Below, piece after piece: positions 2,448-64,000 of a DNA stretch of 64,000 nt. The stretch is from assembly GCA_963664585.2 (NCBI GenBank), contig CAXXEO010000015.1, positions 6,597 through 70,596 of the forward strand, in the 5' to 3' direction. The position numbers and the translations under genes were made by a program. Below the pieces are notes generated by a model that was given only the letters and a program-made list of their open reading frames with translations, searched no databases and was not told the origin of the DNA. The DNA comes from Oscillospiraceae bacterium. Its GTDB lineage: Bacteria > Bacillota > Clostridia > Oscillospirales > Ruminococcaceae. How positions within the stretch are numbered: position 1 is the first letter of the stretch; each line of letters opens with the position of its first letter.

Positions 2448-2554
2448 TATAGCCAATTAACTTAAAAACTGGCTATATATATAACGTCATTTTCTTCCCC
2501 CGCCTTCGGCGGGGGAAGAAATCACAAGCTTGTTTTCAAATTAATCAACTATAT
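2448..2554 (+). repeat. F1 repeat copy, orientation A
   Basis: TATAGCCAATTAACTTAAAAACTGGCTATA...TTCTTCCCCCGCCTTCGGCGGGGGAAGAA...ACAAGCTTGT...TTAATCAACTATA, in a divergent intergenic region. Confidence 0.9.
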
Positions 2555-3252: not shown

Positions 3253-4155
3253 ATGGAAAGCTGGGAAAAGATAGTTGCCGTGCAGCATATGCAGGATTAT
3301 ATCGAAGAGCATATGACAGAAACGATCACCCTCTTAATGCTGGCAAGTGCCGCCGGGTATTCGCCTTGGCACAGTGCGAGGATCTTCAAAGAGATTACAG
3401 GCAAAGCACCATTTGAATACATCCGCACCTTGCGCTTGTCCCATGCGGCCGCTAAACTGCATGATGAGGATGTCAAGATTATTGATGTAGCATTTGACTT
3501 TGTCTTTGATTCGCACGAAGGCTTCACAAGAGCATTCTCGCGAGAGTTTGGCATGACTCCGAAATACTACAGCAAGAACACGCCGCTGTTAAAGCTCTTT
3601 CTTCCCAGCCATGCCCGTGATTATTACCTTACTCAGCAAAAAGGAGATGGCAAAATGGCAAAAGATCTTCATACTGTATTTGTTCAGGTGGTTGACCGTC
3701 CAGCAAGAAAGCTGATTTTAAAGCGCGGCATCAAAGCGGCACATTACTTTGAATTCTGTGAGGAAGTCGGCTGCGAAGTATGGGATGTCCTTTCTGGCAT
3801 TAAAGAAGCTCTATATGAGCCAATTGGCATGTGGTTGCCGGAAAGCTTAAAAAAGCCCGGCACGTCGGTGTACACACAGGGTGTAGAAGTAGCTGAAGAT
3901 TATTCTGGTAAAGTACCTGAGGGATATGAATTGGTTCATCTGGCACCGTGCAAGATGATGGTTTTTCAGGGCCCGCCCTATGACGATGAGAAATTCGAAG
4001 AGGCAATCAGCGAGCTTTGGGAAGTGATGAAAAGCTATAACCCCGTGCTTTATGGCTTTGAATGGGCCGATGAGGATGGACCTAGATTTCAACTTGCACC
4101 GATGGGATACCGGGGTTATATAGAAGCGAGACCGGTTCGTCAGTTGGGCAAATAA
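3253..4155 (+). CDS. AraC-family transcriptional regulator with GyrI-like effector-binding domain
   Basis: ORF 3223..4155. Start at ATG 3253 after GGAGGTGAG. AraC HTH (SPWHSARIFKEITGKAPFEYIRTLRL...GFTRAFSREFGMTP) followed by a ~150-aa C-terminal ligand-binding-type domain. Confidence 0.85.
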   Translation: MESWEKIVAVQHMQDYIEEHMTETITLLMLASAAGYSPWHSARIFKEITGKAPFEYIRTLRLSHAAAKLHDEDVKIIDVAFDFVFDSHEGFTRAFSREFGMTPKYYSKNTPLLKLFLPSHARDYYLTQQKGDGKMAKDLHTVFVQVVDRPARKLILKRGIKAAHYFEFCEEVGCEVWDVLSGIKEALYEPIGMWLPESLKKPGTSVYTQGVEVAEDYSGKVPEGYELVHLAPCKMMVFQGPPYDDEKFEEAISELWEVMKSYNPVLYGFEWADEDGPRFQLAPMGYRGYIEARPVRQLGK

Positions 4156-4258
4156 AGCCAATTAACTTAAAAACTGGGTATATATAAAACGTCATTTTCT
4201 TCCCCCGCCTTCGGCGGGGGAAGAAATCACAAGCTTGTTTTCAAATTAATCAACTATA
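4153..4258 (+). repeat. F1 repeat copy, orientation A
   Basis: Begins TAAAGCCAATTAAC (consensus TATAGCC...). Its first 3 nt are the TAA stop of the AraC gene. Confidence 0.9.
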
Positions 4259-4923: not shown

Positions 4924-5268
4924 ATGGAAAAGCAAAGCAAAAAAGAGCTGCTGGCAGCTTATAAAGAGCGTGCTATTATAGGCGGCGTTTATGCGATAAA
5001 AAATACAGCAAACGGAAAAATCCTTTTACAGTCCGCCGCTGATTTATATGGTTGTAAAAACCGCTTTGAGTTTGCACAGAAAACGGGAGGCTGTGCTGCT
5101 TTACAATTGCATGAAGACTGGAAAATATTCGGTGCTGTCGCCTTTACATTTGAAATATTGGAGCAGCTGGAGAAAAAGGATACACAAACTTTGAAAGAGT
5201 TTAGCCAAGACATTGAAGTTTTAAAAGAAATTTGGCTTGAAAAGCTGGCTGCCATTGAGCTTTATTGA
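4924..5268 (+). CDS. small GIY-YIG-like domain protein
   Basis: 114 aa. GVYAIKNTANGKILLQS...KNRFEF...FEILE resembles the GIY-(10-11 aa)-YIG, Arg and Glu pattern. Starts 4 nt after the previous stop. Confidence 0.5.
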   Translation: MEKQSKKELLAAYKERAIIGGVYAIKNTANGKILLQSAADLYGCKNRFEFAQKTGGCAALQLHEDWKIFGAVAFTFEILEQLEKKDTQTLKEFSQDIEVLKEIWLEKLAAIELY

Positions 5269-5282
5269 CAGGAGGATTGACG

Positions 5283-5558
5283 ATGCGTTCGATTGCAACG
5301 TTTTTGGATGAAGCAGGAAAGATTAAGAAGCTCCCAGCAAAAAGAGAGCCCAGACGTGCTGTCTTAGAGTATCTTGCCACCAGGTTTTCCTGTGACAGGG
5401 ATTATACAGAAAAAGAAGTAAACGTAATCATTGACAGCTGGCACACCTTCGGCGATTATTTTGTACTGCGACGTGAACTGATCGAGCAGAAGTTCCTTTG
5501 CAGAACAAGAGATGGCTCACGATACTGGAAAGAGGAAGTTGCTGCTATAGCCAATTAA
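5283..5558 (+). CDS. DUF2087-like domain protein
   Basis: ORF 5265..5558, trimmed to ATG 5283 after AGGAGG. YTEKEVNVIIDSWHTFGDYFVLRRELIE resembles DUF2087. The last four codons (ATA GCC AAT TAA) are F1 repeat sequence. Confidence 0.55.
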   Translation: MRSIATFLDEAGKIKKLPAKREPRRAVLEYLATRFSCDRDYTEKEVNVIIDSWHTFGDYFVLRRELIEQKFLCRTRDGSRYWKEEVAAIAN

Positions 5559-5644
5559 CTTAAAAACTGGCTATATATAAAACGTCATTTTCTTCCCCCG
5601 CCTTCGGCGGTGGAAGAAATCACAAGCTTGTTTTCAAGTTAATC
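5546..5644 (+). repeat. F1 repeat copy, orientation A, split by IS30-family copy 1 (remaining 11 bp at 6698..6708)
   Basis: The F1 sequence runs to ...CAAGTTAATC, then the IS end GCTACATTG. AATCAACTATA resumes after the IS. Confidence 0.9.
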
Positions 5645-6697
5645 GCTACATTGTAAAATGAAATGCGACAGAAAAAAGATAGCCCAAGGCAGCCAAAACG
5701 TGTAGAATAGAGTTTGCAACAACAACATTCACACAAGGAGGCAGCCATGAGCCACCACCATTTTACAACATTCGAACGAGGAAAGATAGAGGAACTCCGT
5801 CAAATCGGATATACGACCCGGAAAATCGCATCACGTCTGGGATGTCACCACAGCAGTATCGCTAGAGAATTGAAACGTTTTTGCGGTGCCCGAGCGTATA
5901 ACGCAGAAGAAGCACAACTGGATTACCAGAAGAAACGGCACAACAGCAAACCTCAAGGGAAATGGAACGAGGAGTTGTGCGCAGCTGTGGCAGAAAAGCT
6001 GAAAGAGACCTGGTCGCCAGAACAAATATCACATACCGTTACTTCAAGCCAACTGAGCTTTAAAACCATATACAACTGGCTTTATGCCGGACGACTGAAC
6101 GGACTTACCGCAGATGTGCTGCGCCGTAATGGAAAAAAGAGAAGCTGTAAAAATCTTGCGCATTATGCTCGTGGTACTTCTATCCGCAAGAGACCCAAAG
6201 AGGTATATACCAGAGAAACATTTGGGCATTGGGAACTTGATACGGTGGTTTTCTCTAGGGGTTCCAGCGGTTGCTTGGCCACCTTTGTGGAATGAAAAAC
6301 AAGGTTCTATACAGCCGTTCCCATTCCTGATCGAACGGCAGCTTCCATGGAAGCTGCAATCAAGCACCTGCACACTTTATTGCCACAAGGCACATTCAAA
6401 ACAGCAACAACAGATCGTGGCGGTGAATTTGCCTGTTATGATGTAATCCAGAAAGATCTAGGCTTAACTCTTTATTTCGCTGATCCATATTGTCCGCATC
6501 AGAGAGGAAGCAATGAGTACGGTAACGGTTTGCTCAGAGAGTTCTTTCCGAAAGGTACTGTTCTGTCCACTGTTTCTCATCAAAACCTATCTTCTTCTCT
6601 TCTGCTTATAAACAACAGACCCCGAAAATGTCTTAATTGGAATACACCTTCCCAGCTCTTTCTACTCGAACTGTCGCATTTGGCTTGACAATGTAGC
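5645..6697 (+). mobile_element. IS30-family insertion sequence, copy 1 (1053 bp), transposase inactivated
   Basis: Inverted repeats GCTACATTGTAAAATGAAATGCGACAG and CTGTCGCATTTGGCTTGACAATGTAGC. AATC is duplicated on both flanks. Confidence 0.9.
5747..6688 (+). pseudogene. IS30-family transposase with a nonsense mutation
   Basis: TGA at 6293-6295 where copy 3 has CGA, splitting the ORF into 5714..6295 and 6347..6688. Confidence 0.85.
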
Positions 6698-6805
6698 AAT
6701 CAACTATAGTGCTGACGCTGATCATTCGGAGAATTGACTTAGCCTGATGCATTTTAAATCCCGCCGGTTTACCGCTATTTTGGAACGCCTTTCGACATAG
6801 AAACA

Positions 6806-8300: not shown

Positions 8301-8452
8301 ATCAATCTATACGATTAGTTCGTTTTTATTGAATTTTTCATCTTAAAGCCTTTTAAAAGCAAAGAATCATCCGATTTAAACAGCATAACCTGAAGCCATT
8401 TATCAAACAAAGTAAAGGTTGGCCTTTAAAGATATTGCTTCTATAGTTGATT

Positions 8453-9504
8453 GCTACATTGTAAAATGAAATGCGACAGAAAAAAGATAGCCCAAGGCAG
8501 CCAAAACGTGTAGAATAGAGTTTGCAACAACAACATTCACACAAGGAGGCAGCCATGAGCCACCACCATTTTACAACATTCGAACGAGGAAAGATAGAGG
8601 AACTCCGTCAAATCGGATATACGACCCGGAAAATCGCATCACGTCTGGGATGTCACACAGCAGTATCGCTAGAGAATTGAAACGTTTTTACGGTGCCCGA
8701 GCGTATAACGCAGAAGAAGCACAACTGGATTACCAGAAGAAACGGCACAACAGCAAACCTCAAGGGAAATGGAACGAGGAGTTGTGCGCAGTTGTGGCAG
8801 AAAAGCTGAAAGAGACCTGGTCGCCAGAACAAATATCACATACCGTTACTTCAAGCCAACTGAGCTTTAAAACAATATACAACTGGCTTTATGCCGGACG
8901 ACTGAACGGACTCACCGCAGATGTGCTGCGCCGTAATGGAAAAAAGAGAAGCTGTAAAAATCTTGCGCATTATGCTCGTGGTACTTCTATCCGCAAGAGA
9001 CCGAAAGAGGTATATACCAGAGAAACATTTGGGCATTGGGAACTTGATACGGTGGTTTCCTCTAGGGGTTCCAGTAGTTGCTTGGCCACCTTTGTGGAAC
9101 GAAAAACAAGGTTCTATACAGCCGTTCCCATTCCTGATCGAACGGCAGCTTCCATGGAAGCTGCAATCAAGCACCTGCACACTTTATTGCCACAAGGCAC
9201 ATTCAAAACAGCAACAACAGATCGTGGCGGTGAATTTGCCTGTTATGATGTAATCCAGAAAGATCTAGGCTTAACTCTTTATTTCGCTGATCCATATTGT
9301 CCGCGTCAGAGAGGAAGCAATGAGTACGGTAACGGTTTGCTCAGAGAGTTCTTTCCGAAAGGTACTGTTCTGTCAACTGTTTCTCATCAAAACCTGTCTT
9401 CTTCTCTTCTGCTTATAAACAATAGACCCCGAAAATGTCTTAATTGGAATACACCTTCCCAGCTCTTTCTACTCGAACTGTCGCATTTGGCTTGACAATG
9501 TAGC
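8453..9504 (+). mobile_element. IS30-family insertion sequence, copy 2 (1052 bp), transposase frameshifted
   Basis: Same inverted repeats as copy 1. Flanked by TATAGTTGATT and GATTAACTTG, so it sits inside an orientation-B F1 copy with GATT duplicated. Confidence 0.9.
8555..9495 (+). pseudogene. IS30-family transposase with a 1-nt deletion
   Basis: GATGTCACACAGC near 8656 versus GATGTCACCACAGC in copies 1 and 3. Only the 281-aa ORF 8650..9495 remains open. Confidence 0.85.
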
Positions 9505-9603
9505 GATTAACTTGAAAACAAGCTTGTGATTTCTTCCCCCGCCGAAGGCGGGGGAAGAAAATGACGTTTTAACTATAGCCAGTTTTTAAGTTAATTGGCT
9601 ATA
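9505..9603 (-). repeat. F1 repeat copy, orientation B, split by IS copy 2 (other 11 bp at 8442..8452)
   Basis: GATTAACTTGAAAACAAGCTTGTGATTTCTTCCCCCGCCGAAGGCGGGGGAAGAAAATGACG...TTAATTGGCTATA. The loop reads GAA on the top strand. Confidence 0.9.
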
Positions 9604-9674: not shown

Positions 9675-10955
9675 CTATTCCTTGCCCCAGAAGCTTTCAT
9701 GCTCCGCCCAAAGGCCAACAGCTGGATTAGATATATAAAACACCTCTTCCGAGTCGATGGTATTAAACCCATCCTTCATACTATGGATTGGGTATTTCTC
9801 CATCGCCTCTTCCAAAGACATATAGTGATAGTTGATGCCTTCAATTTCTTCCCTTGTCATATGGCCTGGAGCATAGGTAATCGTAAATCTGTCATCAGAG
9901 GAAGAATGGATGATGTGTGCCGCAACAGAAAGACTCTTTTGCAAATCCTCATTTTCCTGCGTCAGACGACAAATTCTATCCCGGCCCACATAGCCGTATT
10001 TTCGGATCAGCCTGTCGTTTTCTTTGTCCTCCCCGCAACCGCACAGACCCGGGGCAATGATAACCAGCTCTCCGCCGTCCTCTATACACATTCTGGTGCG
10101 GTAAATCGCCTTATTACCGATCCAGGTTCTTTTAAACTCTTTTTCATGCAGATAGACAATCACCTTTTTAAGTCTTTTGTCCAAAAAGGTAAGATTCTTT
10201 TGCTGGCTTATGGCAATGGCTTTTTCAAAGGTGTCTCTGTTTTCACCGATCGAAAGACATTCTACCTGAGGCTCCAAGCCTTTTACTGTAGTAACAGTGA
10301 GCATATAAAGGATGGGTACATTTTGCAAAAAATGCTCCAAAGCATAATCAAACAGTTTATGCACCGGAGTGTGGTCGCGGCCCATCATTTTTTCCATACC
10401 GTACAGCGCTCCGATATAATGGCTGGCATTGATCATCCCACTGCCGCCGCAGCCCACAAAAATATTCTTGTTATAGTTCGCCATGCCCACCACCTCGTGG
10501 GGCACTACCTGACCGACCGAAATAATGATGTCATAGCTTTTATCAAGAACGCGCTTGTTAATTTCAACGGGAACCGCTTCGCAGAAATAGCCGGCACTGA
10601 TTTCCTTGACAAATTCCGCCGGCACCTCTCCTATCTTGATGGTATCAGTCTTCCAGTTGTGTACTAAAAAACGATCATGTGGAATGGATGTATACATTTC
10701 ATCCAGCTCTTCTTCACTCATGGGCACATGGGTACCTAAGGCTGGCAGAATATCCACCTGAGCATTTTTGTCGGTCAAATACCGGTACAGCATCCGGGTG
10801 ATGGGGCCCGCATAGGAATTGGAACGTGACATATCGGGCGGAATAATCAGTGCTTTTTTAATATCCCTGTTTGCGAGTGCGTTTAATATGGCTTCATTAA
10901 TCTGCTCGTCACTGATCGGAAAGTCCTGTTTTGCATAAAGGCACAGATTACCCAT
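9675..10955 (-). CDS. LarA-like (DUF2088) nickel-dependent hydroxyacid racemase/epimerase family protein
   Basis: 426 aa with overall LarA-type organisation (...GQVVPHEVVGMANYNKNIFVGCGG...). Specificity is unknown. Confidence 0.65.
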   Translation of the reverse strand: MGNLCLYAKQDFPISDEQINEAILNALANRDIKKALIIPPDMSRSNSYAGPITRMLYRYLTDKNAQVDILPALGTHVPMSEEELDEMYTSIPHDRFLVHNWKTDTIKIGEVPAEFVKEISAGYFCEAVPVEINKRVLDKSYDIIISVGQVVPHEVVGMANYNKNIFVGCGGSGMINASHYIGALYGMEKMMGRDHTPVHKLFDYALEHFLQNVPILYMLTVTTVKGLEPQVECLSIGENRDTFEKAIAISQQKNLTFLDKRLKKVIVYLHEKEFKRTWIGNKAIYRTRMCIEDGGELVIIAPGLCGCGEDKENDRLIRKYGYVGRDRICRLTQENEDLQKSLSVAAHIIHSSSDDRFTITYAPGHMTREEIEGINYHYMSLEEAMEKYPIHSMKDGFNTIDSEEVFYISNPAVGLWAEHESFWGKE

Positions 10956-11070
10956 TTTCTTTTCTCCTATTCATTGGGGCTTATACTGTTGATACACATG
11001 TTTTCCATGTCGTCGGGAAATGGAAGCGTCTAAACTGCTGACATTACTTTCATATCAGCCCGTTTTATCA

Positions 11071-12474
11071 TCAGGCTTCGCTTTCCCACTGGGTATGGAA
11101 GTCTCCCTCGCGGTCAATACGTTGATAGGTATGAGCACCAAAACAGTCCCGCAGTGCCTGCACAAGGTTAAGCGGCATTTTATCCGTGTGTATACTGTCA
11201 TAGTAAGTGATCGTGGAGGCAAGAGCAGGCTCGGCAAGACCGGCCATCATGCCCTGCGCAACAACCTCTCTCCATGTTTTTTGCAGTTGATTTAGTTGTG
11301 GAGCAAACTCCTCGGTCAGAATAAGGTTATCGATATCCGGTTGTTGTCTGAGTGCATAGGTAATTTTCTCGAGAAGGCTTGAGCGTATGATACATCCGCC
11401 TCTCCATAGAGAAATGACATTCGGCAAATCAATCCCCCAACCGAAATCCTTGGATGCTTTTCGAATCAGCTCTATCCCCTGTGCATAACTGCAGATAATT
11501 CCGGCCAACAGTGCCTCTTCCAGGCTGTTTTGACCATTCTGTAAAACGAAGTTATGTTCTGGCGGTGTAAATAGTGCATTCCCCATCTGACGAAGATGTG
11601 TGTTCTTGGAAAGATAACGGGCAAATACTGCTTCAGAGATAGTGGGTATGTAAACGCCTCTTTCCATTCCTTCAATGAGGGTCCAACTGCCTGTTCCTTT
11701 TTGCTGCGCCACATCTAAAATATAATCAACCAACTGGCCACCTGTCAGTGGATCCTCTTTTTCTAGCACCAGCAAGGTGATATCAATCAGGTAGGAATCT
11801 AAAGCGCCCTTGGACCAGTCCTTAAAGGTTCCTGCGATCTCCTGATTGCTAAGCTTTAACCCCGTCCGCATCAAGTGATAGACATCTGCAATCAGTTGAA
11901 GAATTGCGTATTCAATACCATTATGCACCATCTTGACATAGTGTCCCGCTCCGCCGCCGCCGACATAGCCACAGCAGGAATCACTGCCGGCATGAGCGGC
12001 AATTAACTGTAAAATGCTGCCGCAATGCTCCCAAGCCTCGCGGCTTCCGCCAGCCATCATGCTGGGGCCCTCCAGAGCGCCTTTTTCACCGCCTGAAATG
12101 CCTGTTCCCAAATAGCAAATACCCTTTTCCTGTAAGGCCTGAAGCCGCCGCAAGGTATCCGTGTATCTGGAGTTTCCCCCATCAATCAATATATCACCCG
12201 GCACAAGATGGGGTGAAAGTTCCTCAATGACCATGTCAACCGGCGATCCCGCGGTAATCATAAGGAGTATGACTCTGGGCGTGGAAAGGCTTTCCACAAA
12301 TGCAGTCATCTCTTCAAAGACCTGCCAGTTCTTGTTTTCGGGACAACTAAACGATTTGCGTTCCTTTTCGGGTTTACTGTATAGTGCAGTGTTTACCCCA
12401 TGATGGATTAAATTCTTCGCCAGACTGCTGCCCATAACGCCCAGCCCATAGAGTCCAATTTGGTATTCCGTCAT
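11071..12474 (-). CDS. gnd: 6-phosphogluconate dehydrogenase, decarboxylating
   Basis: ORF 11071..12567, trimmed to MTEYQIGLYGLGVMGSSLAKNL. Contains IDGGNSRYTDTLRR and GTGISGGEKGALEGPSMMAGG. Confidence 0.9.
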   Translation of the reverse strand: MTEYQIGLYGLGVMGSSLAKNLIHHGVNTALYSKPEKERKSFSCPENKNWQVFEEMTAFVESLSTPRVILLMITAGSPVDMVIEELSPHLVPGDILIDGGNSRYTDTLRRLQALQEKGICYLGTGISGGEKGALEGPSMMAGGSREAWEHCGSILQLIAAHAGSDSCCGYVGGGGAGHYVKMVHNGIEYAILQLIADVYHLMRTGLKLSNQEIAGTFKDWSKGALDSYLIDITLLVLEKEDPLTGGQLVDYILDVAQQKGTGSWTLIEGMERGVYIPTISEAVFARYLSKNTHLRQMGNALFTPPEHNFVLQNGQNSLEEALLAGIICSYAQGIELIRKASKDFGWGIDLPNVISLWRGGCIIRSSLLEKITYALRQQPDIDNLILTEEFAPQLNQLQKTWREVVAQGMMAGLAEPALASTITYYDSIHTDKMPLNLVQALRDCFGAHTYQRIDREGDFHTQWESEA

Positions 12475-14170: not shown

Positions 14171-14359
14171 TGTTTTTAAATGCACTCTATTGCAATTATC
14201 TAAAAAACGAGACTTCTATCTTTCTGCCCCGCCTGCAACTGGACAGAAGGAGTTGAAATTTATATCATATGTATTTTCCCCGTCCGAGGTGGGGAAATGA
14301 TAAATTTAACGCATTTTCTATTTTGTTAAGGTGGATTTGCAAAAAACAGTTTGGTTCAA

Positions 14360-15154: not shown

Positions 15155-15280
15155 AATCAGACCTCCTTTAATTATATCCCATACCAAACTGCGATTAAAC
15201 GATAATTCCAATGATGATTTCTCCGCTAACAGCGGCAAGGTCACAAACGAAAATTCAGTGTCATTTAAACTAAATTAAAT

Positions 15281-15384
15281 GCCTTGTAAAATCTAAATCC
15301 TTATGGCAATGGGTTAAATGTCTTTATATATTCCCCCGCCTTCGGCGGGGCAATATATAAGTTTAAGATGTTACATTGTACTAG
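15281..15384 (-). repeat. F2 repeat copy with GC hairpin core, orientation Y
   Basis: GCCTTGTAAAATCTAAATCCTTATGGCAATGGGTTAAATG...TATATTCCCCCGCCTTCGGCGGGGCAATATA...GATGTTACATTGTACTAG. Confidence 0.85.
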
Positions 15385-15396
15385 TATGGCAGCCTC

Positions 15397-17250: not shown

Positions 17251-17356
17251 TATAGCCAATTAACTTGAAAATTGGCTATAGATAAAACGTCATTTTCTTC
17301 CCCCGCCTTCGGCGGGGGAAGAAATCACAAGCTTGTTTTCAAATGAATCAACTATA
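17251..17356 (+). repeat. F1 repeat copy, orientation A
   Basis: Variant with an 11-bp first stem, TATAGCCAATT AACTTGAAA AATTGGCTATA. Core loop TTC. Confidence 0.9.
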
Positions 17357-18210: not shown

Positions 18211-19383
18211 TTAATGATGAAACAATCTGACTCTGGTGAATGCCATCGCAATGTTATATTTGTCACAGGTTCCAATCACATGATCATCGCGAATTGACCC
18301 GCCTGTTTGTGCGATGAATTCGACACCGCTTCTATGCGCACGTTCAATATTATCACCGAAAGGGAAGAAAGCGTCGGACCCCAATGATACTCCCATAAAT
18401 GTATCCAACCATCTTCTTTTTTCTTCATAGGTAAATGGGTCGGGTCTTTTTGTAAAAATTTCTTCCCAACAGCCATCCGAAAGAATTTGTGCGCTATCAA
18501 CGGAGAGGTAACCATCAATCGCATTGTCCCGTTCTGGACGTTGGATGCTTTCTTTAAAAGGGAGGTTTAGCACCTTGGGATTTTGGCGCAAATACCATTG
18601 ATCCGATTTATCCCCTGCCAGGCGAGTGCAATGAATTCTTGATTGCTGTCCGGCTCCAATCCCTATTGCCTGACTGTCTTTTACATAACATACAGAATTT
18701 GATTGTGTATATTTCAGGGTGAGTAATGCGATGATGAGATCAGTTTTAGCGTCACTGGGAATCTCTTTGTTCAGGGTTGGAATTTCTTGCAGTAATTCTT
18801 CTGAAATCTTCACCTCATTTGTTCCCTGTTCAAATGTAATTCCAAAAACGTCCTTTTGTTCAACCAAATTCGGTTTGTAATTTTCGTCGATCTGGATAAT
18901 CGTGTAAAGCCCCTTGCGCTTCTTTTTTAAAATGTCGAGTGCTTTTTCTTCATACTCGGGAGCGACAATGCCATCCGAAACTTCCCTGGCAATGAGCGTT
19001 GCCGTGGACACGTCGCAAATATCGGATAAAGCGATAAAGTCTCCATATGAAGACATCCTGTCCGCACCTCTAGCTCTTGCGTAAGCCGATGCCTGCGCGG
19101 ATAGCTCCAAATCATCCACGAAATATATTTTTCTTAGCGTTTTACTCAAAGGCTTACCTATCGCTGCCCCCGCTGGGCTGACATGCTTAAAAGACGCAGC
19201 CGCAGTAAAACCCGTTGCCTGTTTTAGTTCCTTTACCAATTGCCAACCGTTAAAGGCATCTAAAAGATTGATATAGCCTGGATTTCCATTCAGAATCTTT
19301 ATCGGCACCTCGCCGGTTTTCATAAATATTCTCGCTGGCTTTTGATTGGGATTGCATCCATATTTTAGTTCCATTTCAGTCAT
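18211..19383 (-). CDS. AICAR transformylase-type protein (PurH formyltransferase domain only)
   Basis: 390 aa. The MELKYGCNPNQKPARIF start and GIGAGQQSRIHCTRLA are typical of the AICARFT domain. No IMP cyclohydrolase/MGS domain. Confidence 0.75.
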   Translation of the reverse strand: MTEMELKYGCNPNQKPARIFMKTGEVPIKILNGNPGYINLLDAFNGWQLVKELKQATGFTAAASFKHVSPAGAAIGKPLSKTLRKIYFVDDLELSAQASAYARARGADRMSSYGDFIALSDICDVSTATLIAREVSDGIVAPEYEEKALDILKKKRKGLYTIIQIDENYKPNLVEQKDVFGITFEQGTNEVKISEELLQEIPTLNKEIPSDAKTDLIIALLTLKYTQSNSVCYVKDSQAIGIGAGQQSRIHCTRLAGDKSDQWYLRQNPKVLNLPFKESIQRPERDNAIDGYLSVDSAQILSDGCWEEIFTKRPDPFTYEEKRRWLDTFMGVSLGSDAFFPFGDNIERAHRSGVEFIAQTGGSIRDDHVIGTCDKYNIAMAFTRVRLFHH

Positions 19384-19413: not shown

Positions 19414-19459
19414 TAAAAAAGCCAACTATCCGGGTTGTTTGCCCAGACGGTCGGCTTTT
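19414..19459 (-). terminator. intrinsic terminator candidate
   Basis: Minus strand: AAAAGCCGAC...GTTGGCTTTTTTATTG, downstream of the flavin reductase-like gene. Confidence 0.45.
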
Positions 19460-19773
19460 ATGTCATACTCCCTTGTGGTTATCCACATCCGTCAGTAATA
19501 TGACTCTTTATTTTAGTTTAAACTCAAAATGACTGATTGTCAATGTTAAGCTATACGAAAAGTCACTGCCCTTATCCAAGTTCCATTTAACACGAATCCC
19601 AATTTCAACAGCAATGATCCACCTCTGTTTCCCCCGCCTCCGGTGGCGAAACAGAGGGAATAATTAAGTGTGATTTAGAGAAGATTCAGTATGAACGATG
19701 TAGGAAATAGGGTGATGATAAAAGGGATGTACTTATCGATCTTCACAGCCTTGTTAATGGATTTTTGTTATTT

Positions 19774-22896: not shown

Positions 22897-23002
22897 TATA
22901 GTTGATTAACTTGAAAACAAGCTTGTGATTTCTTCCCCCGCCTTTGGCGGGGGAAGAAAATGACGTTTTATCTATAGCCAATTTTCAAGTTAATTGGCTA
23001 TA
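22897..23002 (-). repeat. F1 repeat copy, orientation B
   Basis: TATAGTTGATTAACTTGAAAACAAGCTTGTGATTTCTTCCCCCGCCTTTGGCGGGGG... The loop reads TTT on the top strand despite B orientation. Confidence 0.9.
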
Positions 23003-29614: not shown

Positions 29615-29700
29615 CTAGTACATTGCAAAATCTTAAACTTGTATATTCCCCCGCCTTCGGCGGGGGAATATACAAGAACACTTAACCCATTGCCATAAGT
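29615..29700 (+). repeat. F2 repeat copy with GC hairpin core, orientation X, right end diverged
   Basis: CTAGTACATTGCAAAATCTTAAACTTGTATATTCCCCCGCCTTCGGCGGGGGAATATACAAGAACACTTAACCCATTGCCATAAG. Confidence 0.85.
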
Positions 29701-29750: not shown

Positions 29751-29984
29751 CTTAAAATATACAGGAAACAATAATGCTTGTCAATTCAAATTGTTGCACT
29801 TTTTTTAAAGACGTTTATAATAATATTCATCATACTATTTTAATCTGCCCCGCCTGTTGTGACAGAATTAAATTTTCCCACTTATTTGTTTATTTCGGTT
29901 TCTTTCTTCCTCCGCAGCTTAACTGCTATTTGGGGATCGTATAATATTTCGCTATTAAACCTAATTACATAAGGAGGTTTTGCA

Positions 29985-31180: not shown

Positions 31181-31286
31181 TATAGTTGATTAACTTGAAA
31201 ACAAGCTTGTGATTTCTTCCCCAGCCTTCGGCGGGGGAAGAAAATGACGTTTTATATATAGCCAGTTTTTAAGTTAATTGGCTATA
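31181..31286 (-). repeat. F1 repeat copy, orientation B
   Basis: Core CCCCAGCCTTCGGCGGGGG (loop TTC on the top strand). Its end abuts the TAA stop of the 31287 gene. Confidence 0.9.
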
Positions 31287-31973: not shown

Positions 31974-32216
31974 AATTCAGCTTCCCCCTTAATGCAGCAT
32001 ATGCAGCATGGAAGAAGTCCGCCTGTAATTCCACATCATTTAGATCGCCAGACAAGCATTGTTTTTAGAAAAGGCATTCTTATTATGTAATATTTATCTC
32101 GAATCACGAATATAAACGAATCTCAATCGCACAGATGCCAATGGTAATATTTATATATTTGCGATTCATTAAATACTGGAACAAGAATTGCAAACCCTAC
32201 CACTGAGGTGAAATAG

Positions 32217-32657
32217 ATGAAAAGGCAAAAGAAATATATTACAGTATACTGTATTGGCTCATTAGGATATAGCGCTATTGAAGTGTTATGGCGGGGATAT
32301 ACACATTGGACTATGGGAATTGTCGGCGGTATTAGTTTTATACTGCTGCATTTTATAAATTGCAACTTAGAAAGACATAGTCACTTAATTAAATGTATGA
32401 TCGGCTCGTTAACAATCACGTCAATTGAGTTCGCAAGCGGGTGTATATTTAATTTTGCTTTACACATGAATGTATGGGATTATTCCAATCAACCGGGGAA
32501 TATACTGGGACAAATTTGCCCCTTATACTGCCTTTATTGGTTTCTATTGTGTATTCCGACCATGGCATTTAGCAGTCTTATTCAAAAGCAAATTTTCGCT
32601 GTTTCTGCTTCTTGCTTTCCCTCGACAAATAAACCGGGATTTTCAAACCACTCATAG
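32217..32657 (+). CDS. small polytopic membrane protein (possibly the 'putative ABC-transporter type IV' family)
   Basis: 146 aa, four hydrophobic segments, AGGTGA RBS. Confidence 0.5.
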   Translation: MKRQKKYITVYCIGSLGYSAIEVLWRGYTHWTMGIVGGISFILLHFINCNLERHSHLIKCMIGSLTITSIEFASGCIFNFALHMNVWDYSNQPGNILGQICPLYCLYWFLLCIPTMAFSSLIQKQIFAVSASCFPSTNKPGFSNHS

Positions 32658-32828
32658 GTATCCAATCGCTGGATTTAGCCATGATCACTCATCCATCATA
32701 TCTTCACTTTATAGATTACGCCAATCCCCCTGTCGTAGTAATTATTCTACAACAGAGGAATTGGCGTAATGTACGTTTTACTGGTACAGTTCACTATTTT
32801 ATTGCGGGTTTATCCGCGAATTGAGCCG

Positions 32829-33038
32829 TCATTCATATTCGATTTTAAATCCGGTGTTTTCAATACAATCCTTTATTTGCTCTTCATTCGCGGGCTCGTT
32901 ATATTCAACCTTTATTGTGCCTGTAGTCAGGTTGACGCCAATTTCCTGAACCCCCTCTATTTTATCCAGCGCATTTTTTATCTGGGTTTTGCATTGCTTA
33001 TTCTGAATCCCTGAAACACTACAAAGTAACGTGTTCAT
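32829..33038 (-). CDS. heavy-metal-associated (HMA) fold protein lacking the CxxC metal site
   Basis: 69 aa with a ferredoxin-like HMA pattern (VSGIQNKQCKTQIKNALDKIEGVQEIGVNL..GTIKVEY). Only one Cys sits where MxCxxC is expected. Confidence 0.55.
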   Translation of the reverse strand: MNTLLCSVSGIQNKQCKTQIKNALDKIEGVQEIGVNLTTGTIKVEYNEPANEEQIKDCIENTGFKIEYE

Positions 33039-33053
33039 TTTAATCCATCCTTT

Positions 33054-33212
33054 TTAAATTTTATCGGTCATCATTTTTTCATGTTTGCCATCATGCACAC
33101 CAATTTTATGTCCGTCAATAATCCCTGCATCTGCATTTTCTTTTGGCTTCATTTTTCTTAATTCCGGATTGCTTTTTGGTCTGTCTTTCATTTTGTTTTT
33201 ATTATTATCCAT
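33054..33212 (-). CDS. possible 52-aa Lys/His-rich small protein
   Basis: Below the ORF-track cutoff. My own translation: MDNNKNKMKDRPKSNPELRKMKPKENADAGIIDGHKIGVHDGKHEKMMTDKI. AAGGGAAAAGGA lies upstream. The ORF ends 15 nt before the HMA gene start. Confidence 0.3.
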   Translation of the reverse strand: MDNNKNKMKDRPKSNPELRKMKPKENADAGIIDGHKIGVHDGKHEKMMTDKI

Positions 33213-33255
33213 CTAATCCTTTTCCCTTCATTCAAGTAATGGCACTGTCTTCTAG

Positions 33256-33319
33256 TGCTTTTAAAATCTAAATCTTTTATGGCAATGGGTTAAATATAAA
33301 AGTTGAAAATGTTGCATTG
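33256..33319 (-). repeat. F2 repeat copy without the GC hairpin, orientation Y, fused to an F1 copy
   Basis: GTGCTTTTAAAATCTAAATCTTTTATGGCAATGGGTTAAATATAAAAGTTGAAAATGTTGCATTGTA, joined directly to TAGCCAATT. Confidence 0.75.
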
Positions 33320-33423
33320 TATAGCCAATTAACTTAAAAACTGGCTATATATAACGTCATTTTCTTCCCCCGCTTTCGGCGGGGGAAGAAATCACAAGCT
33401 TGTTTTCAAGTTAATCAACTATA
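33320..33423 (+). repeat. F1 repeat copy, orientation A
   Basis: Core variant CCCCCGCTTTCGGCGGGGG. Confidence 0.9.
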
Positions 33424-33821
33424 CTAGTATTAATTCAATAAAATGATTTATTCAATTAGACCGATGATTCGCGCAGAAGATGAAACATCATAAACATTTT
33501 CTCATAGCTTTTTTAGTTATTTCAACCGTTATTAGGTGCGAATTTTGTCATTTTGTGTTACACTGATTCTGTAAGAAAAAATATTTGAAGAGCTATACTA
33601 TATCGCATTAAAAAAATATTTAAAAATGTATTTAGCGTTTGGAAATTGGAGGTGCCAAATGTAATCTCAGAAATAATCAGAAAAACCATGTCATCTATGG
33701 ATCAACAACCGGTGAGCAATGCAGTCTTACAGTTTAATTACTTTTTAACCCATGTGAATGGGTATTGGTTTCAAAGTATAATTATTTTTTCAACTATATT
33801 AATAATAAAGGGGATAATAAA

Positions 33822-33959
33822 ATGGGTGATAAAAGTATAAAAAATAATCAGGTTAAGAAAAAGAAGAAAGCAGATATCAGTACTTCATCTTCCCCGGCAT
33901 CATTCAAGCCGGTTGTAACACAGCCTGAATTAATCAAAAAGAAGAAAAAACCTCTCTAG
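33822..33959 (+). CDS. possible 45-aa Lys-rich small protein
   Basis: MGDKSIKNNQVKKKKKADISTSSSPASFKPVVTQPELIKKKKKPL behind AAAGGGGA. Its stop lies inside the F2 terminus. Coding status is uncertain. Confidence 0.25.
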   Translation: MGDKSIKNNQVKKKKKADISTSSSPASFKPVVTQPELIKKKKKPL

Positions 33960-34046
33960 TACAATGCAACATCTTAAATTTTCCCCCGCCTTCGGCGGGG
34001 GAAAATACAAAAACATTTAACCCATTGTCATAAAATACAAAGCCCT
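33956..34046 (+). repeat. F2 repeat copy with GC hairpin core, orientation X, internal deletion near the right end
   Basis: CTAGTACAATGCAACATCTTAAATTTTCCCCCGCCTTCGGCGGGGGAAAATACAAAAACATTTAACCCATTGTCATAAAATACAAAGCC. Confidence 0.85.
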
Positions 34047-36216: not shown

Positions 36217-36250
36217 TCTGGGATAGACATAAGCCTCTAAGCCAATGCTT

Positions 36251-36354
36251 AGAGTTGATTAACTTGAAAACAAGCTTGTGATTTCTTCCCCCACCTTCGG
36301 CGGGGGAAGAAAATGACGTTTTATTTATACCGGTTTTTAAGATAATTGGCTATA
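36251..36354 (-). repeat. F1 repeat copy, orientation B
   Basis: The terminus is AGAGTTGATT (not TATAG). Core CCCCCACCTTCGGCGGGGG, loop TTC on the top strand. Confidence 0.88.
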
Positions 36355-36456: not shown

Positions 36457-36562
36457 TATAGTTGATTAACTTGAAAACAAGCTTGTGATTTCTTCCCCCG
36501 CCGAAGGCGGGGGAAGAAAATGACGTTTTATATATAGCCAGTTTTTAAGTTAATTGGCTATA
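36457..36562 (-). repeat. F1 repeat copy, orientation B
   Basis: Near-consensus. The loop reads GAA on the top strand. It lies 102 bp from the previous copy. Confidence 0.9.
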
Positions 36563-37533: not shown

Positions 37534-37575
37534 TATAGTTGATTAACTTGAAAACAAGCTTGTTTTGCTTCTTCG
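37534..37575 (-). repeat. solo F1 terminal fragment (B-side TIR only)
   Basis: TATAGTTGATTAACTTGAAAACAAGCTTGT, then divergence. No GC core. Confidence 0.75.
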
Positions 37576-40586: not shown

Positions 40587-40597
40587 TAATATGTCGG

Positions 40598-40658
40598 CGC
40601 AATGTAACATTGTATATTCCCCCGCCTTCGGCAGGGGAATATACAAAAACGTTTAAGC
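40598..40658 (+). repeat. partial F2 repeat with GC hairpin core
   Basis: GCGCAATGTAACATTGTATATTCCCCCGCCTTCGGCAGGGGAATATACAAAAACGTTTAAGC. It lacks the TTAACCCATTGCC arm. Confidence 0.7.
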
Positions 40659-40672
40659 AAAAAATTAAAAGA

Positions 40673-51259: not shown

Positions 51260-51365
51260 TATAGTTGATTAACTTGAAAACAAGCTTGCGATTTCTTCCC
51301 CCGCCGAAGGCGGGGGAAGAAAATGACGTTATATATATAGCCAGTTTTTAAGTTAATTGGCTATA
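51260..51365 (-). repeat. F1 repeat copy, orientation B
   Basis: Near-consensus. The loop reads GAA on the top strand. Confidence 0.9.
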
Positions 51366-60456: not shown

Positions 60457-60495
60457 AAAACAATCCTCTGCCGTGATGGCAGAGGATTGTTTTTA
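60457..60495 (+). terminator. intrinsic terminator of the second ABC/C26 operon
   Basis: AAAACAATCCTCTGCC-GTGA-GGCAGAGGATTGTTTTT. The F1 terminus starts inside the T-run. Confidence 0.85.
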
Positions 60496-60504
60496 TAGTT
60501 GATT

Positions 60505-61557
60505 GCTACATTGTAAAATGAAATGCGACAGAAAAAAGATAGCCCAAGGCAGCCAAAACGTGTAGAATAGAGTTTGCAACAACAACATTCACACAAGGAG
60601 GCAGCCATGAGCCACCACCATTTTACAACATTCGAACGAGGAAAGATAGAGGAACTCCGTCAAATCGGATATACGACCCGGAAAATCGCATCACGTCTGG
60701 GATGTCACCACAGCAGTATTGCTAGAGAATTGAAACGTTTTTACGGTGCCCGAGCGTATAACGCAGAAGAAGCACAACTGGATTACCAGAAGAAACGGCA
60801 CAACAGCAAACCTCAAGGGAAATGGAACGAGGAGTTGTGCGCAGCTGTGGCAGAAAAGCTGAAAGAGACCTGGTCGCCAGAACAAATATCACATACCGTT
60901 ACTTCAAGCCAACTGAGCTTTAAAACAATATACAACTGGCTTTATGCCGGACGACTGAACGGACTCACCGCAGATGTGCTGCGCCGTAATGGAAAAAAGA
61001 GAAGCTGTAAAAATCTTGCGCATTATGCTCGTGGTACTTCTATCCACAAGAGACCCAAAGAGGTATATACCAGAGAAACATTTGGGCATTGGGAACTTGA
61101 TACGGTGGTTTTCTCTAGGGGTTCCAGCGGTTGCTTGGCCACCTTTGTGGAACGAAAAACAAGGTTCTATACAGCCGTTCCCATTCCTGATCGAACGGCA
61201 GCTTCCATGGAAGCTGCAATCAAGCACCTGCACACTTTATTGCCACAAGGCACATTCAAAACAGCAACAACAGATCGTGGCGGTGAATTTGCCTGTTATG
61301 ATGTAATCCAGAAAGATCTAGGCTTAACTCTTTATTTCGCTGATCCATATTGTCCGCATCAGAGAGGAAGCAATGAGTACGGTAACGGTTTGCTCAGAGA
61401 GTTCTTTCCGAAAGGTACTGTTCTGTCCACTGTTTCTCATCAAAACCTGTCTTCTTCTCTTCTGCTTATAAACAATAGACCCCGAAAATGTCTTAATTGG
61501 AATACACCTTCCCAGCTCTTTCTACTCGAACTGTCGCATTTGGCTTGACAATGTAGC
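60505..61557 (+). mobile_element. IS30-family insertion sequence, copy 3 (1053 bp), intact
   Basis: Same 27-bp inverted repeats. Flanked by TATAGTTGATT and GATTCACTTG (GATT duplicated), inside an orientation-B F1 copy. Confidence 0.92.
60607..61548 (+). CDS. IS30-family transposase (313 aa from ATG behind AAGGAGG)
   Basis: N-terminal HTH (FERGKIEELRQIGYTTRKIASRLGCHHSSIAREL). DDE region WELDTV ... TDRGGEF ... PHQRGSNEYGNGLLREFFPKG. Confidence 0.92.
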   Translation: MSHHHFTTFERGKIEELRQIGYTTRKIASRLGCHHSSIARELKRFYGARAYNAEEAQLDYQKKRHNSKPQGKWNEELCAAVAEKLKETWSPEQISHTVTSSQLSFKTIYNWLYAGRLNGLTADVLRRNGKKRSCKNLAHYARGTSIHKRPKEVYTRETFGHWELDTVVFSRGSSGCLATFVERKTRFYTAVPIPDRTAASMEAAIKHLHTLLPQGTFKTATTDRGGEFACYDVIQKDLGLTLYFADPYCPHQRGSNEYGNGLLREFFPKGTVLSTVSHQNLSSSLLLINNRPRKCLNWNTPSQLFLLELSHLA

Positions 61558-61656
61558 GATTCACTTGAAAACAAGCTTGTATTTTCTTCCCTCGCCTTCG
61601 GCGGGGGAAGAAAATGACGTTTTATATATAGCCAGTTTTTAAGTGAATTGGCTATA
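61558..61656 (-). repeat. F1 repeat copy, orientation B, split by IS copy 3 (other 11 bp at 60494..60504)
   Basis: GATTCACTTGAAAACAAGCTTGTATTTTCTTCCCTCGCCTTCGGCGGGGGAAGAAAATGACG...GAATTGGCTATA. Loop TTC on the top strand. Confidence 0.9.
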
Positions 61657-61674: not shown

Positions 61675-62613
61675 CTATTTTGACTTTTTAGCAACATAAG
61701 AAGTTAACATAGGAACACATATTGCCGTAACCACAACTGCCGCTGCAATTTGTGCCGTAGCCACGGCAACATACGGTTGCATCGTCTTGTCCAGTAAAGC
61801 GACTGCTGCCGGGGTTGCGACTGCATTTCCAGCAGCACTCGAAACTGCGGCGGCCGCATAGCCTGGTCTTCTATTAATCGATTTATCTACTAATATGAGT
61901 GGAATACCCCCTATTGCCATGACTAAAATGCCTAGGAGAACACCACTATAACCGGCTTTCATCACATTTGTAAAGTTTATGCCGGCACCTAAAGCAAATG
62001 CAAAGCAAGGGATCATAATATCAATTCCAGGCTTAAAGAGTATTCTTATATCGTCATCCAGATTTCCTAGAATGATTCCAACTATCAATGGACCTATAGC
62101 GCCCAATAAACTTATGACAGGAATATCAGCCATACCTGATGCTCCTAGCGCGAGCAAAGTTAAAAAAGGACCGTCTTTAATGTTAAGTACGCTTAAGGCG
62201 CCAATATCTATAGGATCACCATACTCCGAAACCAGGGCGGCATATAAACCGCCATTACCGCTTGTCATAGCGCTGACTAGGGCTAGCACAGAAATCCCGA
62301 AAATCCCTTCCATCCCAAATCGTTTAGCAACCAGCAGTGCAAACCCAGCCCCGATTAAAAACTTAGCAATTACTAATACGGCTCCCCTTTTCAATGCTTC
62401 AGGAGCCTCCTTAAATTTTAACTGGCTTCCGACAAACATTAAAAATACGCCTACTAAAGCAGCTGAGCCTTTGCTTGAAAATACTGCTGTTGTAAAGGAT
62501 CCTATTTCAAGAAGTGCAGGGCAAAAGGTATTGAATGCAGCACCTATTAACAAAGGAACAACCATCAATCCCCCAGGTATTTTCTTTACCCGCGATAAAA
62601 TTTTCAAATTCAT
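61675..62613 (-). CDS. kdgT: 2-keto-3-deoxygluconate permease family transporter
   Basis: KKIPGGLMVVPLLIGAAFNTFCP N-terminus. 312 aa, polytopic. Confidence 0.8.
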   Translation of the reverse strand: MNLKILSRVKKIPGGLMVVPLLIGAAFNTFCPALLEIGSFTTAVFSSKGSAALVGVFLMFVGSQLKFKEAPEALKRGAVLVIAKFLIGAGFALLVAKRFGMEGIFGISVLALVSAMTSGNGGLYAALVSEYGDPIDIGALSVLNIKDGPFLTLLALGASGMADIPVISLLGAIGPLIVGIILGNLDDDIRILFKPGIDIMIPCFAFALGAGINFTNVMKAGYSGVLLGILVMAIGGIPLILVDKSINRRPGYAAAAVSSAAGNAVATPAAVALLDKTMQPYVAVATAQIAAAVVVTAICVPMLTSYVAKKSK

Positions 62614-62670
62614 TGTTTCCTTTCTCAGCCCCTTTTTGTTAGTTTATCATCTTTTCGCTCACATTGAAAC

Positions 62671-62776
62671 TATAGTTGATTAACTTGAAAACAAGCTTAT
62701 GATTTCTTCCCCCGCCTTCGGCGGGGGAAGAAAATGGAGTTTTATATATAGCCAGTTTTTAAGTTAATTGGCTATA
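62671..62776 (-). repeat. F1 repeat copy, orientation B, fused to an F2 copy
   Basis: Consensus core with TTC on the top strand. It ends GGCTATA, immediately followed by GTACAATGCAAC. Confidence 0.9.
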
Positions 62777-62878
62777 GTACAATGCAACATCATAAACTTG
62801 TAGTTTTTCGCGCCTTCGGCGGGGGAAACTACAAGAACATTTAACCCATTGCCATAAAAGATTTTGATTTTACAAGCC
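62777..62878 (+). repeat. F2 repeat copy with GC hairpin core, orientation X
   Basis: GTACAATGCAACATCATAAACTTGTAGTTTTTCGCGCCTTCGGCGGGGGAAACTACAAGAACATTTAACCCATTGCCATAAAAGATTTTGATTTTACAAGCC. Confidence 0.85.
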
Positions 62879-63078
62879 ACTAGAATTATGATTGGAGCCA
62901 GATCAAGAAAATCATTTATATCAGGATATCGATACCTATTTTGGACGAGTGAAATCATTTCTCAATATGCTTTGTGTTAGAATTACTAAGCATTTCTATA
63001 AATTTATATCTATACTTTATGGTCGCATGAATAAAAAAACGTTATAATAAAAATAAGAATAAAGAGGAGGTACATAAA

Positions 63079-63690: not shown

Positions 63691-63711
63691 CCCGCATAAC
63701 ACGTATTCTTT

Positions 63712-63743
63712 AAAAACCCGTCATCAAGTATGGCGGGTTTTTT
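63712..63743 (+). terminator. intrinsic terminator of the LUD-domain gene
   Basis: AAAAACCCGTCA-N7-TGGCGGGTTTTTT. Confidence 0.75.
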
Positions 63744-63774
63744 GTATCCTGCCATCCGACTTTCATTGCATATA

Positions 63775-63880
63775 TATAGCCAATTAACTTAAAAACTGGC
63801 TATATATAAAACGTCATTTTCTTCCCCCGCCTTCGGCGGGGGAAGAAATCACAAGCTTGTTTTCAAGTTAATCAACTATA
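63775..63880 (+). repeat. F1 repeat copy, orientation A (consensus-like, 106 bp)
   Basis: The full consensus can be read directly here. Confidence 0.92.
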
Positions 63881-63925
63881 CTCTGCGCCCTGCTCTCACT
63901 ATTCTAGAATCTCCTCACTATAGTG

Positions 63926-63982
63926 CTAGTACAATGTAACATCTTTAACCCATTGCCATAAAAGATTTGGATTTTACATGGC
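63926..63982 (+). repeat. F2 repeat copy without the GC hairpin, orientation X
   Basis: CTAGTACAATGTAACATCTTTAACCCATTGCCATAAAAGATTTGGATTTTACATGGC. Confidence 0.8.
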
Positions 63983-64000
63983 GCAAAAAAAAGCAGAGAC

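Follow-up and report, generated by a model that had tools for sequence, protein, structure and literature searches.

Repetitive extragenic palindromes (REPs) are found singly or clustered, have a conserved 5' tetranucleotide and go together with a RAYT gene, and the loops of REPs and bacterial interspersed mosaic elements (BIMEs) in E. coli are targeted by the insertion sequence (IS) IS1397. In E. coli, the deletion of an inverted repeat from between short direct repeats is a classical event, and palindrome-stimulated deletion was reportedly studied there by Sinden et al. in 1991 and DasGupta et al. in 1987. Correia elements are 100-155 bp long, with inverted repeats of 26 bp and a duplicated TA target, and they lack a transposase; the transposase that moves them in Neisseria is still debated (PMC3898611). 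The published Correia repeat reads tatagtggattaac... (PMC5039591), its 26-bp inverted repeat beginning with TATAGTGGATTAA. Template switching at short inverted repeats leads to inversion of the spacer and homogenisation of the arms, according to two further reports (PMC8604942, PMC8794818). Here we describe a GC-rich hairpin which recurs in a 64-kb stretch of DNA from an Oscillospiraceae bacterium (contig CAXXEO010000015.1; hereafter the window), among other places at 33956-34046, and which lies within two families of longer repeats, F1 and F2.

Analysis of the window and of 19 kb of a related contig (L109) suggests that this hairpin is probably the fixed apex of a long central palindrome in two families of non-autonomous MITEs (miniature inverted-repeat transposable elements) and not an element of its own, and that the copies lacking it probably result from errors of replication. 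Both F1 (14 copies, 106 nt) and F2 (7 copies, ~65-115 nt) are short (<300 bp), multi-copy, non-coding and intergenic, every copy being located between open reading frames (ORFs), and F1 is also bordered by terminal inverted repeats. F1 and F2 appear to be two new MITE families with a common palindromic apex.

The hairpin core resembles REPs in being a short, GC-rich extragenic palindrome present in many copies. However, it never stands alone and has no 5' tetranucleotide, and no RAYT (Y1/HUH) gene flanked by such repeats was found in the window. An IS30-family element present in the window is reminiscent of IS1397 in that it inserts at one exact position of the F1 end, but its target is the inverted end of a MITE, not a hairpin loop, and the IS is of a different family. 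F1 also resembles Correia elements. Its length of 106 nt falls in their size range, it has TA borders, it is multi-copy and intergenic, and no cognate transposase is seen. Over the initial 14 nt, its inverted ends (TATAGTTGATTAAC... and TATAGCCAATTAAC...) agree with the Correia repeat at 13 positions (TATAGTtGATTAAC against tatagtggattaac), and they diverge beyond, yet the host is a Clostridia-type Firmicute without a close relative among sequenced genomes, and not Neisseria: its best protein matches are in Clostridia, the best named matches of its IMPDH-like protein being 81-88% identical. The interior of F1 is also unrelated to that of Correia elements and dominated by the GC hairpin, so that the likeness is confined to the ends. 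Because host and interior differ, we call F1 Correia-like and not a member of the family. Finally, loop inversion and arm homogenisation, of which the copies here bear signs, are among the described outcomes of template switching (PMC8604942, PMC8794818). The difference is that here these events are read solely from a comparison of repeat-family copies, and that the inversions are strand-biased.

The core hairpin in F1 and F2

The core consists of CCCCCGCC-TTC/GAA-GGCGGGGG, an 8-bp GC stem closed by a 3-nt loop. The pattern CCCCCGCCNNNGGCGGGGG has 18 matches with up to two mismatches in the window, against 0.01 expected, and a 19th, more degenerate core at 62807 carries three changes in the left arm. 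Flanks and repeat-family membership were listed for each, and all 19 cores are embedded at the centre of either F1 (14) or F2 (5). This bears out the original prediction, made from the letters of the window, that the same GC core lies within both repeats. The arms next to the core are TTTCTT/AAGAAA in F1 and (C)TTGTATATT/AATATACAA(G), plus variants, in F2; the site at 33956-34046 reads CTAGTACAATGCAACATCTTAAATTTT-CCCCCGCCTTCGGCGGGGG-AAAATACAAAAACATTTAACCCATTGTCATAA.... The strings that had been quoted for the filled copy at 33956 and the empty copy at 63926 (AACATCTTTAACCC) are exact to the letter. Overall, the earlier observation is largely confirmed, solo sites excepted.

F1 has the sequence TATAGCCAATTAACTTAAAAACTGGCTATATATAAAACGTCATTTTCTT-core-AAGAAATCACAAGCTTGTTTTCAAGTTAATCAACTATA, and its copies are 88-97% alike. 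Its terminal inverted repeats (TATAGCCAATTAACTTAAAAAC vs TATAGTTGATTAACTTGAAAAC) form Correia-like inverted ends of ~22 nt, with TA at both borders, and a single strand of F1 folds end to end as a long hairpin (-27.8 kcal/mol, z = -9.7, within a range of about -8 to -10). The position of the core is invariant in every full F1 copy, of which there are 18 (14 from the window, 4 from L109). The only core-less piece of F1 is a truncated end fragment of 30 nt (37534..37563, plus strand), comprising the inverted end and ~10 nt. The sequence common to F1 and F2 is restricted to TT-core-AA (23 nt). Similarity of the two families beyond the core was considered and rejected, as their flanks are no more alike than shuffles (p = 0.33-0.84). 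The F2 copies are more diverged from each other than the F1 copies.

When all GC-rich hairpins of the window with a perfect stem of at least 6 bp were listed, no solo core with conserved boundaries was present among them. The GC-rich perfect hairpins other than the core are unrelated native ones, for example those at 6805, 25150, 44413 and 60457. The best candidates outside F1 and F2 are at 19631 (3 mismatches), 14277 and 25013 (4 mismatches each), each with unique flanks, where shuffled sequence is expected to give 0.07 matches at 3 mismatches and 0.6 at 4. The site at 19631 is above chance; it has the look of a structured intergenic hairpin of the ordinary kind, located upstream of a ZTP riboswitch. 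The solo cores or half-cores proposed earlier at about 14275, 19625, 24995, 14224 and 29846 are therefore not confirmed, since none is perfect or near-perfect: they have either 3-4 mismatches and unique flanks or a half-site only. At 14224 and 29846 the likeness is limited to a CCCCGCC-type half-site, and the pair has a different 13-nt motif in common.

Core-less F2 copies and rearrangement of the palindrome

F2 is a repeat of ~85-110 nt with the sequence CTAGTACAATGCAACATCTTAAACTTGTATATT-core-AATATACAAGAACATTTAACCCATTGCCATAAAAGATTTAGATTTTACAAGCCACTAG; CTAGT is common to its two ends and (C)TAG is present at the borders. The window contains exactly seven copies plus one left-end scrap, and five of the seven carry the core. 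The most complete copy (29615..29700, plus strand) has an 18-bp perfect stem at 29638-29676 around the core at 29648-29666. The copy at 15271..15386 (minus strand; 15281 in the earlier list) is essentially intact, with one mismatch in the core (15333-15351), a loop inverted relative to F2 and, in the stem extension, a pair of compensating changes (G>A / C>T). In the copy at 33956..34046 (plus strand; core 33983-34001), 6 nt (CTTGTA) are gone from the left arm, which reduces the stem to TTTT/AAAA plus core, and the right scaffold has lost 11 nt. The copy at 62775..62887 (plus strand; previously given as 62777) has three uncompensated left-arm changes in its core-equivalent (62807-62825) and two compensated pair changes in the extended stem (TAGTTT/AAACTA). 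These four copies had been described as filled, and rightly so. To them we add a truncated copy with core (40597..40660, plus strand; core 40619-40637, one mismatch; hereafter 40619), in which 8 nt of the left scaffold are missing and the right scaffold ends after TTTAA. The motif AACAT, said to occur on both sides of the hairpin block in filled copies, is exact in 33956 and 62775 but present as variants in 29615 (AAAAT/AACAC) and 15281 (AACAT/GACAT).

The two F2 copies without core differ in structure. The copy at 63926..63990 (plus strand) lacks the whole hairpin through a 48-nt deletion with the junction AACATCTT|TAACCC, which falls within an imperfect direct repeat of 10-12 nt (AACATCTTAAAC / AACATTTAACCC) bracketing the palindrome in filled copies. 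In the copy at 33246..33325 (minus strand; 33256), a 35-nt deletion with its junction in ATATT/ACATT has removed the core and the right arm and left the left arm in place. The "AT filler" formerly seen at 33256 is in fact this retained arm, half of the stem: it reads CAACTTTTATATT, the homologue of the F2 left stem arm AAACTTGTATATT, and is joined straight to TAACCC. Because the left arm is retained, 33256 is a deletion derivative of a filled F2 copy. The left breakpoints of the two copies, after AACATCTT in 63926 and after ...TATATT in 33256, are 13 nt apart, and both junctions are located in short repeated bases. Neither core-less copy gives a significant fold. The variant ACAATGTAAC is common to the core-less 63926 and the core-carrying 15281 and 40619.

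Two of the filled copies have additional small deletions beside the hairpin, which differ from each other, and in total four distinct deletions at or beside the hairpin are found among the seven F2 copies. Judged by the sequences at hand, this is the pattern that would be expected of palindrome-stimulated slippage. As far as seven F2 copies allow, the breakpoints are heterogeneous and of slippage type and bounded solo cores are absent, a combination which the original prediction had itself named as speaking against a hairpin that inserts or deletes.

The loops and arms of the palindrome are also rearranged. When all F1 copies are read in the same orientation, the loop is TTC in nine, GAA in four (31219, 36288, 61589 and 62709) and AAA in one (22935). 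Measured against the orientation of the host element, five of the 14 F1 copies and one of the five F2 copies (15333) have an inverted loop, six of 19 overall. The sister copies with cores at 17300 and 22935 have three diagnostic substitutions in common and opposite loop orientations, which requires at least two inversion events. On the plus strand the loop is TTC or TTT in 16 of 19 copies despite the mixed orientation of the elements. No correlation of this bias with the direction of the flanking genes was found, and none of the four F1 copies on L109 has an inverted loop.

Where the AT-rich extension of the stem varies, whether between the families or from one F2 copy to another, both arms have changed. 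No unpaired cell occurs at the extension pairs 8/36, 9/35 and 10/34, and the covariation score of 0.208 exceeds that of shuffles (0.126 ± 0.018; reached in 0 of 500) and of every slid control. Mutations of the GC core are all one-sided. Loop inversion and paired arm changes are described outcomes of template switching and are thus not by themselves an argument for selection on RNA structure. Together, the four F2 deletions, the six inverted loops and the compensated changes of the stem extension support the second possibility raised in the original prediction, that of recurrent rearrangement at the palindrome.

Explanations for the shared hairpin

In the explanation that we favour as the probable one, the hairpin would be carried along passively as F1 and F2 are copied. 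One historical event, be it capture, a chimera or a template switch, would have set the same 23 nt in both scaffolds before the families expanded. Slipped-strand deletions between short repeats flanking or entering the stem would then have given the "empty" and "AT-filler" copies of F2. Intrastrand template switching could invert the 3-nt loop, and the same process could copy a change from one arm to the other, so that the stem stays perfect. MITEs of unrelated metagenomes (L120 and L122) bear on the acquisition step. They have the same TATAGTTGATTAAC ends as F1, with transposases 78-79% identical to that of the resident IS30-family element inserted at the same position, and their interiors are longer, different and without the core. 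The same ends with different interiors indicate that over time this MITE superfamily has swapped ends and interiors, so that the GC hairpin could plausibly have been acquired once, with no mobile hairpin needed.

Several points weigh against this explanation. An identical 23-mer is present in two otherwise unrelated scaffolds, and no observation explains the event that placed it there. The sample is small, with seven F2 copies, only two of them core-less, from 64 kb plus 19 kb. The right breakpoints of the two core-less copies agree within ~5 nt, and the junction of 63926 also has the look of an ancestral empty site with a target duplication of ~10 nt. The six inverted loops all belong to copies in minus orientation (6 of 9 vs 0 of 10 plus-oriented; Fisher about 0.003), a bias not predicted by simple random flipping. 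Lastly, the mobility of F1 and F2 themselves is a presumption.

Alternatively, the core could be a selected functional cassette, such as an RNA stability or processing signal or a site bound by a host protein or transposase, which the two sets of MITEs have exchanged at the palindrome through gene conversion or recombination, with the core-less copies being decayed. The occurrence of the same 23 nt in otherwise dissimilar scaffolds would fit this. The stem kept through compensated changes points in the same direction, as do the CCCCCGCC/GGCGGGGG stem found with another loop and other arms in a third scaffold of a different organism (contig L110, position 5007) and the placement of F2 directly against F1 at 62775 and 33256 and 46 nt from it at 63926, which would favour exchange. 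However, the core is not clearly better conserved than its flanks: divergence in F1 is 2.4% in the stem against 4-5% in the flanks, the latter figure being inflated by IS junctions, and in F2 it is ~6% in both. The one-sided mutations of the GC core also argue against selection on the stem, and template switching would be just as likely to produce the paired arm changes in the absence of any selection (PMC8794818). A function as intrinsic terminator was rejected and appears unlikely from the sequence context: there is no U-tract on either strand, and on both strands T-rich sequence precedes the stem and A-rich sequence comes after it (AAGAAA in F1, AATATA in F2), the reverse of a terminator. 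None of the F1 and F2 hairpins is among the terminator-like sites of the window, although neighbouring native terminators were picked up. The sole match at gathering score to Rfam 15 in the window is the ZTP riboswitch elsewhere, an E-value scan of 62600-64000 returned nothing relevant, and the orientation of the loop is not linked to the direction of transcription. We therefore regard a selected cassette as rather unlikely. The hairpin appears to serve mainly in the structure of the elements; an effect after transcription, on RNA stability or through RNase III processing, is conceivable.

The original prediction had also suggested a tiny hairpin that inserts into larger repeats or excises from them. 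In its fullest form, the hairpin, with or without its AT-rich arms, would insert at AT-rich sites with a ~10-nt target duplication and excise precisely, and 63926 would be an unoccupied target. The imperfect direct repeat AACATCTTAAAC / AACATTTAACCC around the filled F2 block and the single hybrid copy of it in 63926 could be read in this way, a perfect palindrome is formally two abutting inverted ends, and two weak core-like hairpins lie outside F1 and F2 (19631 and 14277). But the comparison of the flanking repeat with the "empty" sequence reveals indels on both sides in place of a clean duplication, the left breakpoints of the core-less copies differ, and 33256 keeps half of the supposed insert. 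In F1 the position of the core never varies and no direct repeat flanks it, the extended arms of F1 and F2 are so different that no single insert sequence fits both, and no copy stands alone with conserved boundaries. A candidate enzyme was not found either, the window having no Y1 gene and the hairpins of the IS200-type TnpA on L109 being different. We know of no mechanism for moving a palindrome of 19-39 nt except REP/RAYT, the defining features of which are absent here. We thus consider such an element highly improbable. Hardly more credible is a derivation of the F2 centre from F1, by insertion of F1 at the TA of TTTAA in a proto-F2 and subsequent loss of the F1 ends through palindrome-driven deletions. 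The TA at the F1 borders, the TTTAA within the empty F2 sequence AACATCTTTAACCC, the repeated adjacency of F1 and F2, the frequency of deletions around the palindrome and short runs like TTAA(A)CTTGT in both F1 and the F2 left arm all fit such a course. However, flank alignments are no better than shuffles, the apparent matches require ad hoc deletions, and F2, being more diverged than F1, looks older than the current F1 burst.

A bolder version of exchange, in which the 23-nt hairpin passes as a cassette between unrelated MITE scaffolds, and occasionally to new sites, via template switching between palindromes or a structure-specific enzyme, seems to us a distant prospect. If it held, the strand-biased loop orientation would record a mechanism dependent on the direction of replication, and the apexes of palindromes would form a unit that mobile elements within one genome exchange horizontally. 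Under the passive reading, the locus is instead a cautionary case, in which a filled/empty polymorphism of a hairpin mimics mobility and classical palindrome instability explains it better. It also lets loop inversion, paired arm changes and slippage deletion be seen in one bacterial repeat family, which bears on the persistence of perfect stems without selection. The surroundings of the hairpin may matter more: a MITE with Correia-type ends in Clostridia, together with an IS30 element that targets one exact base of it in several unrelated metagenomes, could help to identify the mobiliser of Correia-type elements.

F1 copies, IS elements and related sequences

Six of the F1 copies are plus-oriented, one of them interrupted by an IS. 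Those at 2448..2553 (core 2497-2515) and 4153..4258 (core 4202-4220) have the loop TTC in element sense. The copy at 17251..17356 (core 17300-17318, loop TTC) is the sister of the minus-oriented copy 22897..23002 (core 22935-22953), whose loop is inverted relative to the element (TTT on the plus strand). The remaining uninterrupted plus-oriented copies are 33320..33423 (core 33367-33385), which adjoins the core-less F2 copy 33246-33325, and 63775..63880 (core 63824-63842). On the minus strand, 31181..31286 (core 31219-31237) and 36250..36354 (core 36288-36306) each have an inverted loop and one stem mismatch, the loop is unflipped in 36457..36562 (core 36495-36513) and 51260..51365 (core 51298-51316), and 62671..62776 (core 62709-62727, loop inverted) adjoins F2 at 62775.

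Three F1 copies are split by the IS30-family element, which is 1,053 bp long and encodes HTH_38 and rve domains. In the plus-oriented copy 5546..5644 (core 5595-5613), the right inverted end is interrupted by the IS at 5645-6697 and continues at 6698-6708. The minus-oriented copies 9505..9603 (core 9536-9554, loop unflipped, GAA on the plus strand) and 61558..61656 (core 61589-61607, loop inverted) have their other ends at 8442-8452 and 60494-60504, beyond the IS at 8453-9504 and 60505-61557, respectively. The insertion is at the same base of the F1 end in every copy (TTGATT^AAC), with a 4-bp duplication GATT/AATC, and likewise on L109 (~9906-10960). Only the copy at 60505 has an intact transposase ORF (313-aa-type); the copy at 5645 has a nonsense change and the one at 8453 a frameshift. 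No cognate autonomous element for the F1 ends was found. Both termini of F2 look like the left inverted repeat of this IS (TACAATGTAACAT against TACATTGTAAAAT; TTGTAAAATCTAAAT against TTGTAAAATGAAAT), with 11 of 13 and 13 of 14 nt matching and the inward orientation that would be expected (e.g. 63926-63945 and 62860-62887). The alignment scores are 18 and 20, where the 99th percentile of a null from window segments is 18 and the 99.9th is 22. Given this likeness, F2 may belong to the resident IS as its MITE.

F1 and F2 form a head-to-head composite twice, in opposite orientations (62671-62887 and 33246-33423), with junctions that differ by 3 nt; in both, the TATAGCCAATT end of F1 adjoins the left end of F2. 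A third F2 copy is located 46 nt from an F1 copy (63880/63926). F1 and F2 copies cluster at ~32000-34000, where the GC content is lowest (0.35), the cumulative GC skew has its minimum and the gene orientation changes from mostly minus to mostly plus. A replication origin near 33 kb was considered in connection with the loop bias and rejected, with 20 DnaA-box matches against 17.6 expected and neighbouring genes that are not origin-associated.

L109 covers 19 kb of a metagenome contig from ENA (42% GC) and was found via an IS30 transposase with 97% identity; its segment of F1 plus IS is 98% identical to that of the window. At 11740-12470 it carries an IS200-type element with a Y1 TnpA of 152 aa, from a family widespread in Clostridia (Oscillospiraceae-type) contigs. 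The hairpins flanking this element (CCGCCGGC-TTA-GCCGGCGG and CCACCGAC-ATA-GTCGGTGG) have the architecture of the core, with 8-bp GC stems and 3-nt loops, but different letters, and are unrelated to it in sequence. As a tblastn search for Y1 transposases found no such gene in the window, which agrees with the original prediction, and the L109 TnpA hairpins are unrelated, a Y1/HUH link to the core was rejected.

GC apexes similar to the core also occur as plain terminators on L109 (14766). The hairpin at 5007 of L110 (within 4967-5066) combines the same 8-bp stem with another loop (CCCCCGCC-AAT-GGCGGGGG) and has its own AT-rich stem extension, an outer stem and then a T-run; on these features it is probably a terminator. 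It is the one hairpin, in an unrelated scaffold, found among ten contigs with a 93% identical IS200 TnpA (L110-L119), and these have no F1 or F2. Neither core nor F1 or F2 was found on three contigs of relatives (L106-L108; IMPDH-like protein of 87-88% identity) or on L104. In 185,579 species genomes, the F2 arm TTAACCCATTGYCATAA had 103 matches, all single and due to chance, none with core, F1 or F2, and a metagenome scan with the F1 end GATTAAYTTGAAAACAAGCTTG gave one chance match. A viral scan with TT-core-AA and a BLAST search of plasmids with F1 and F2 had no match, and neither the core nor the F1 end sequences turned up in full-text searches of the literature.

Some of the intergenic sites that were compared with the core carry features of their own. 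At 19612-19650, the degenerate core-like hairpin is found just upstream of a minus-strand ZMP/ZTP riboswitch (19434-19509; Rfam RF01750, 56 bits), which is itself upstream of the minus-strand gene 18211-19383. The 13-nt motif CAGGCGGGGCAGA is present at 14215-14240 and at 29840-29860 (minus strand), upstream of minus-strand genes for an IMPDH-like and an AtuA-family protein, and these are the sites whose CTGCCCCGCCTG had been read as half-cores. From its sequence and placement, the motif looks like a shared regulatory site and not a remnant of the hairpin.

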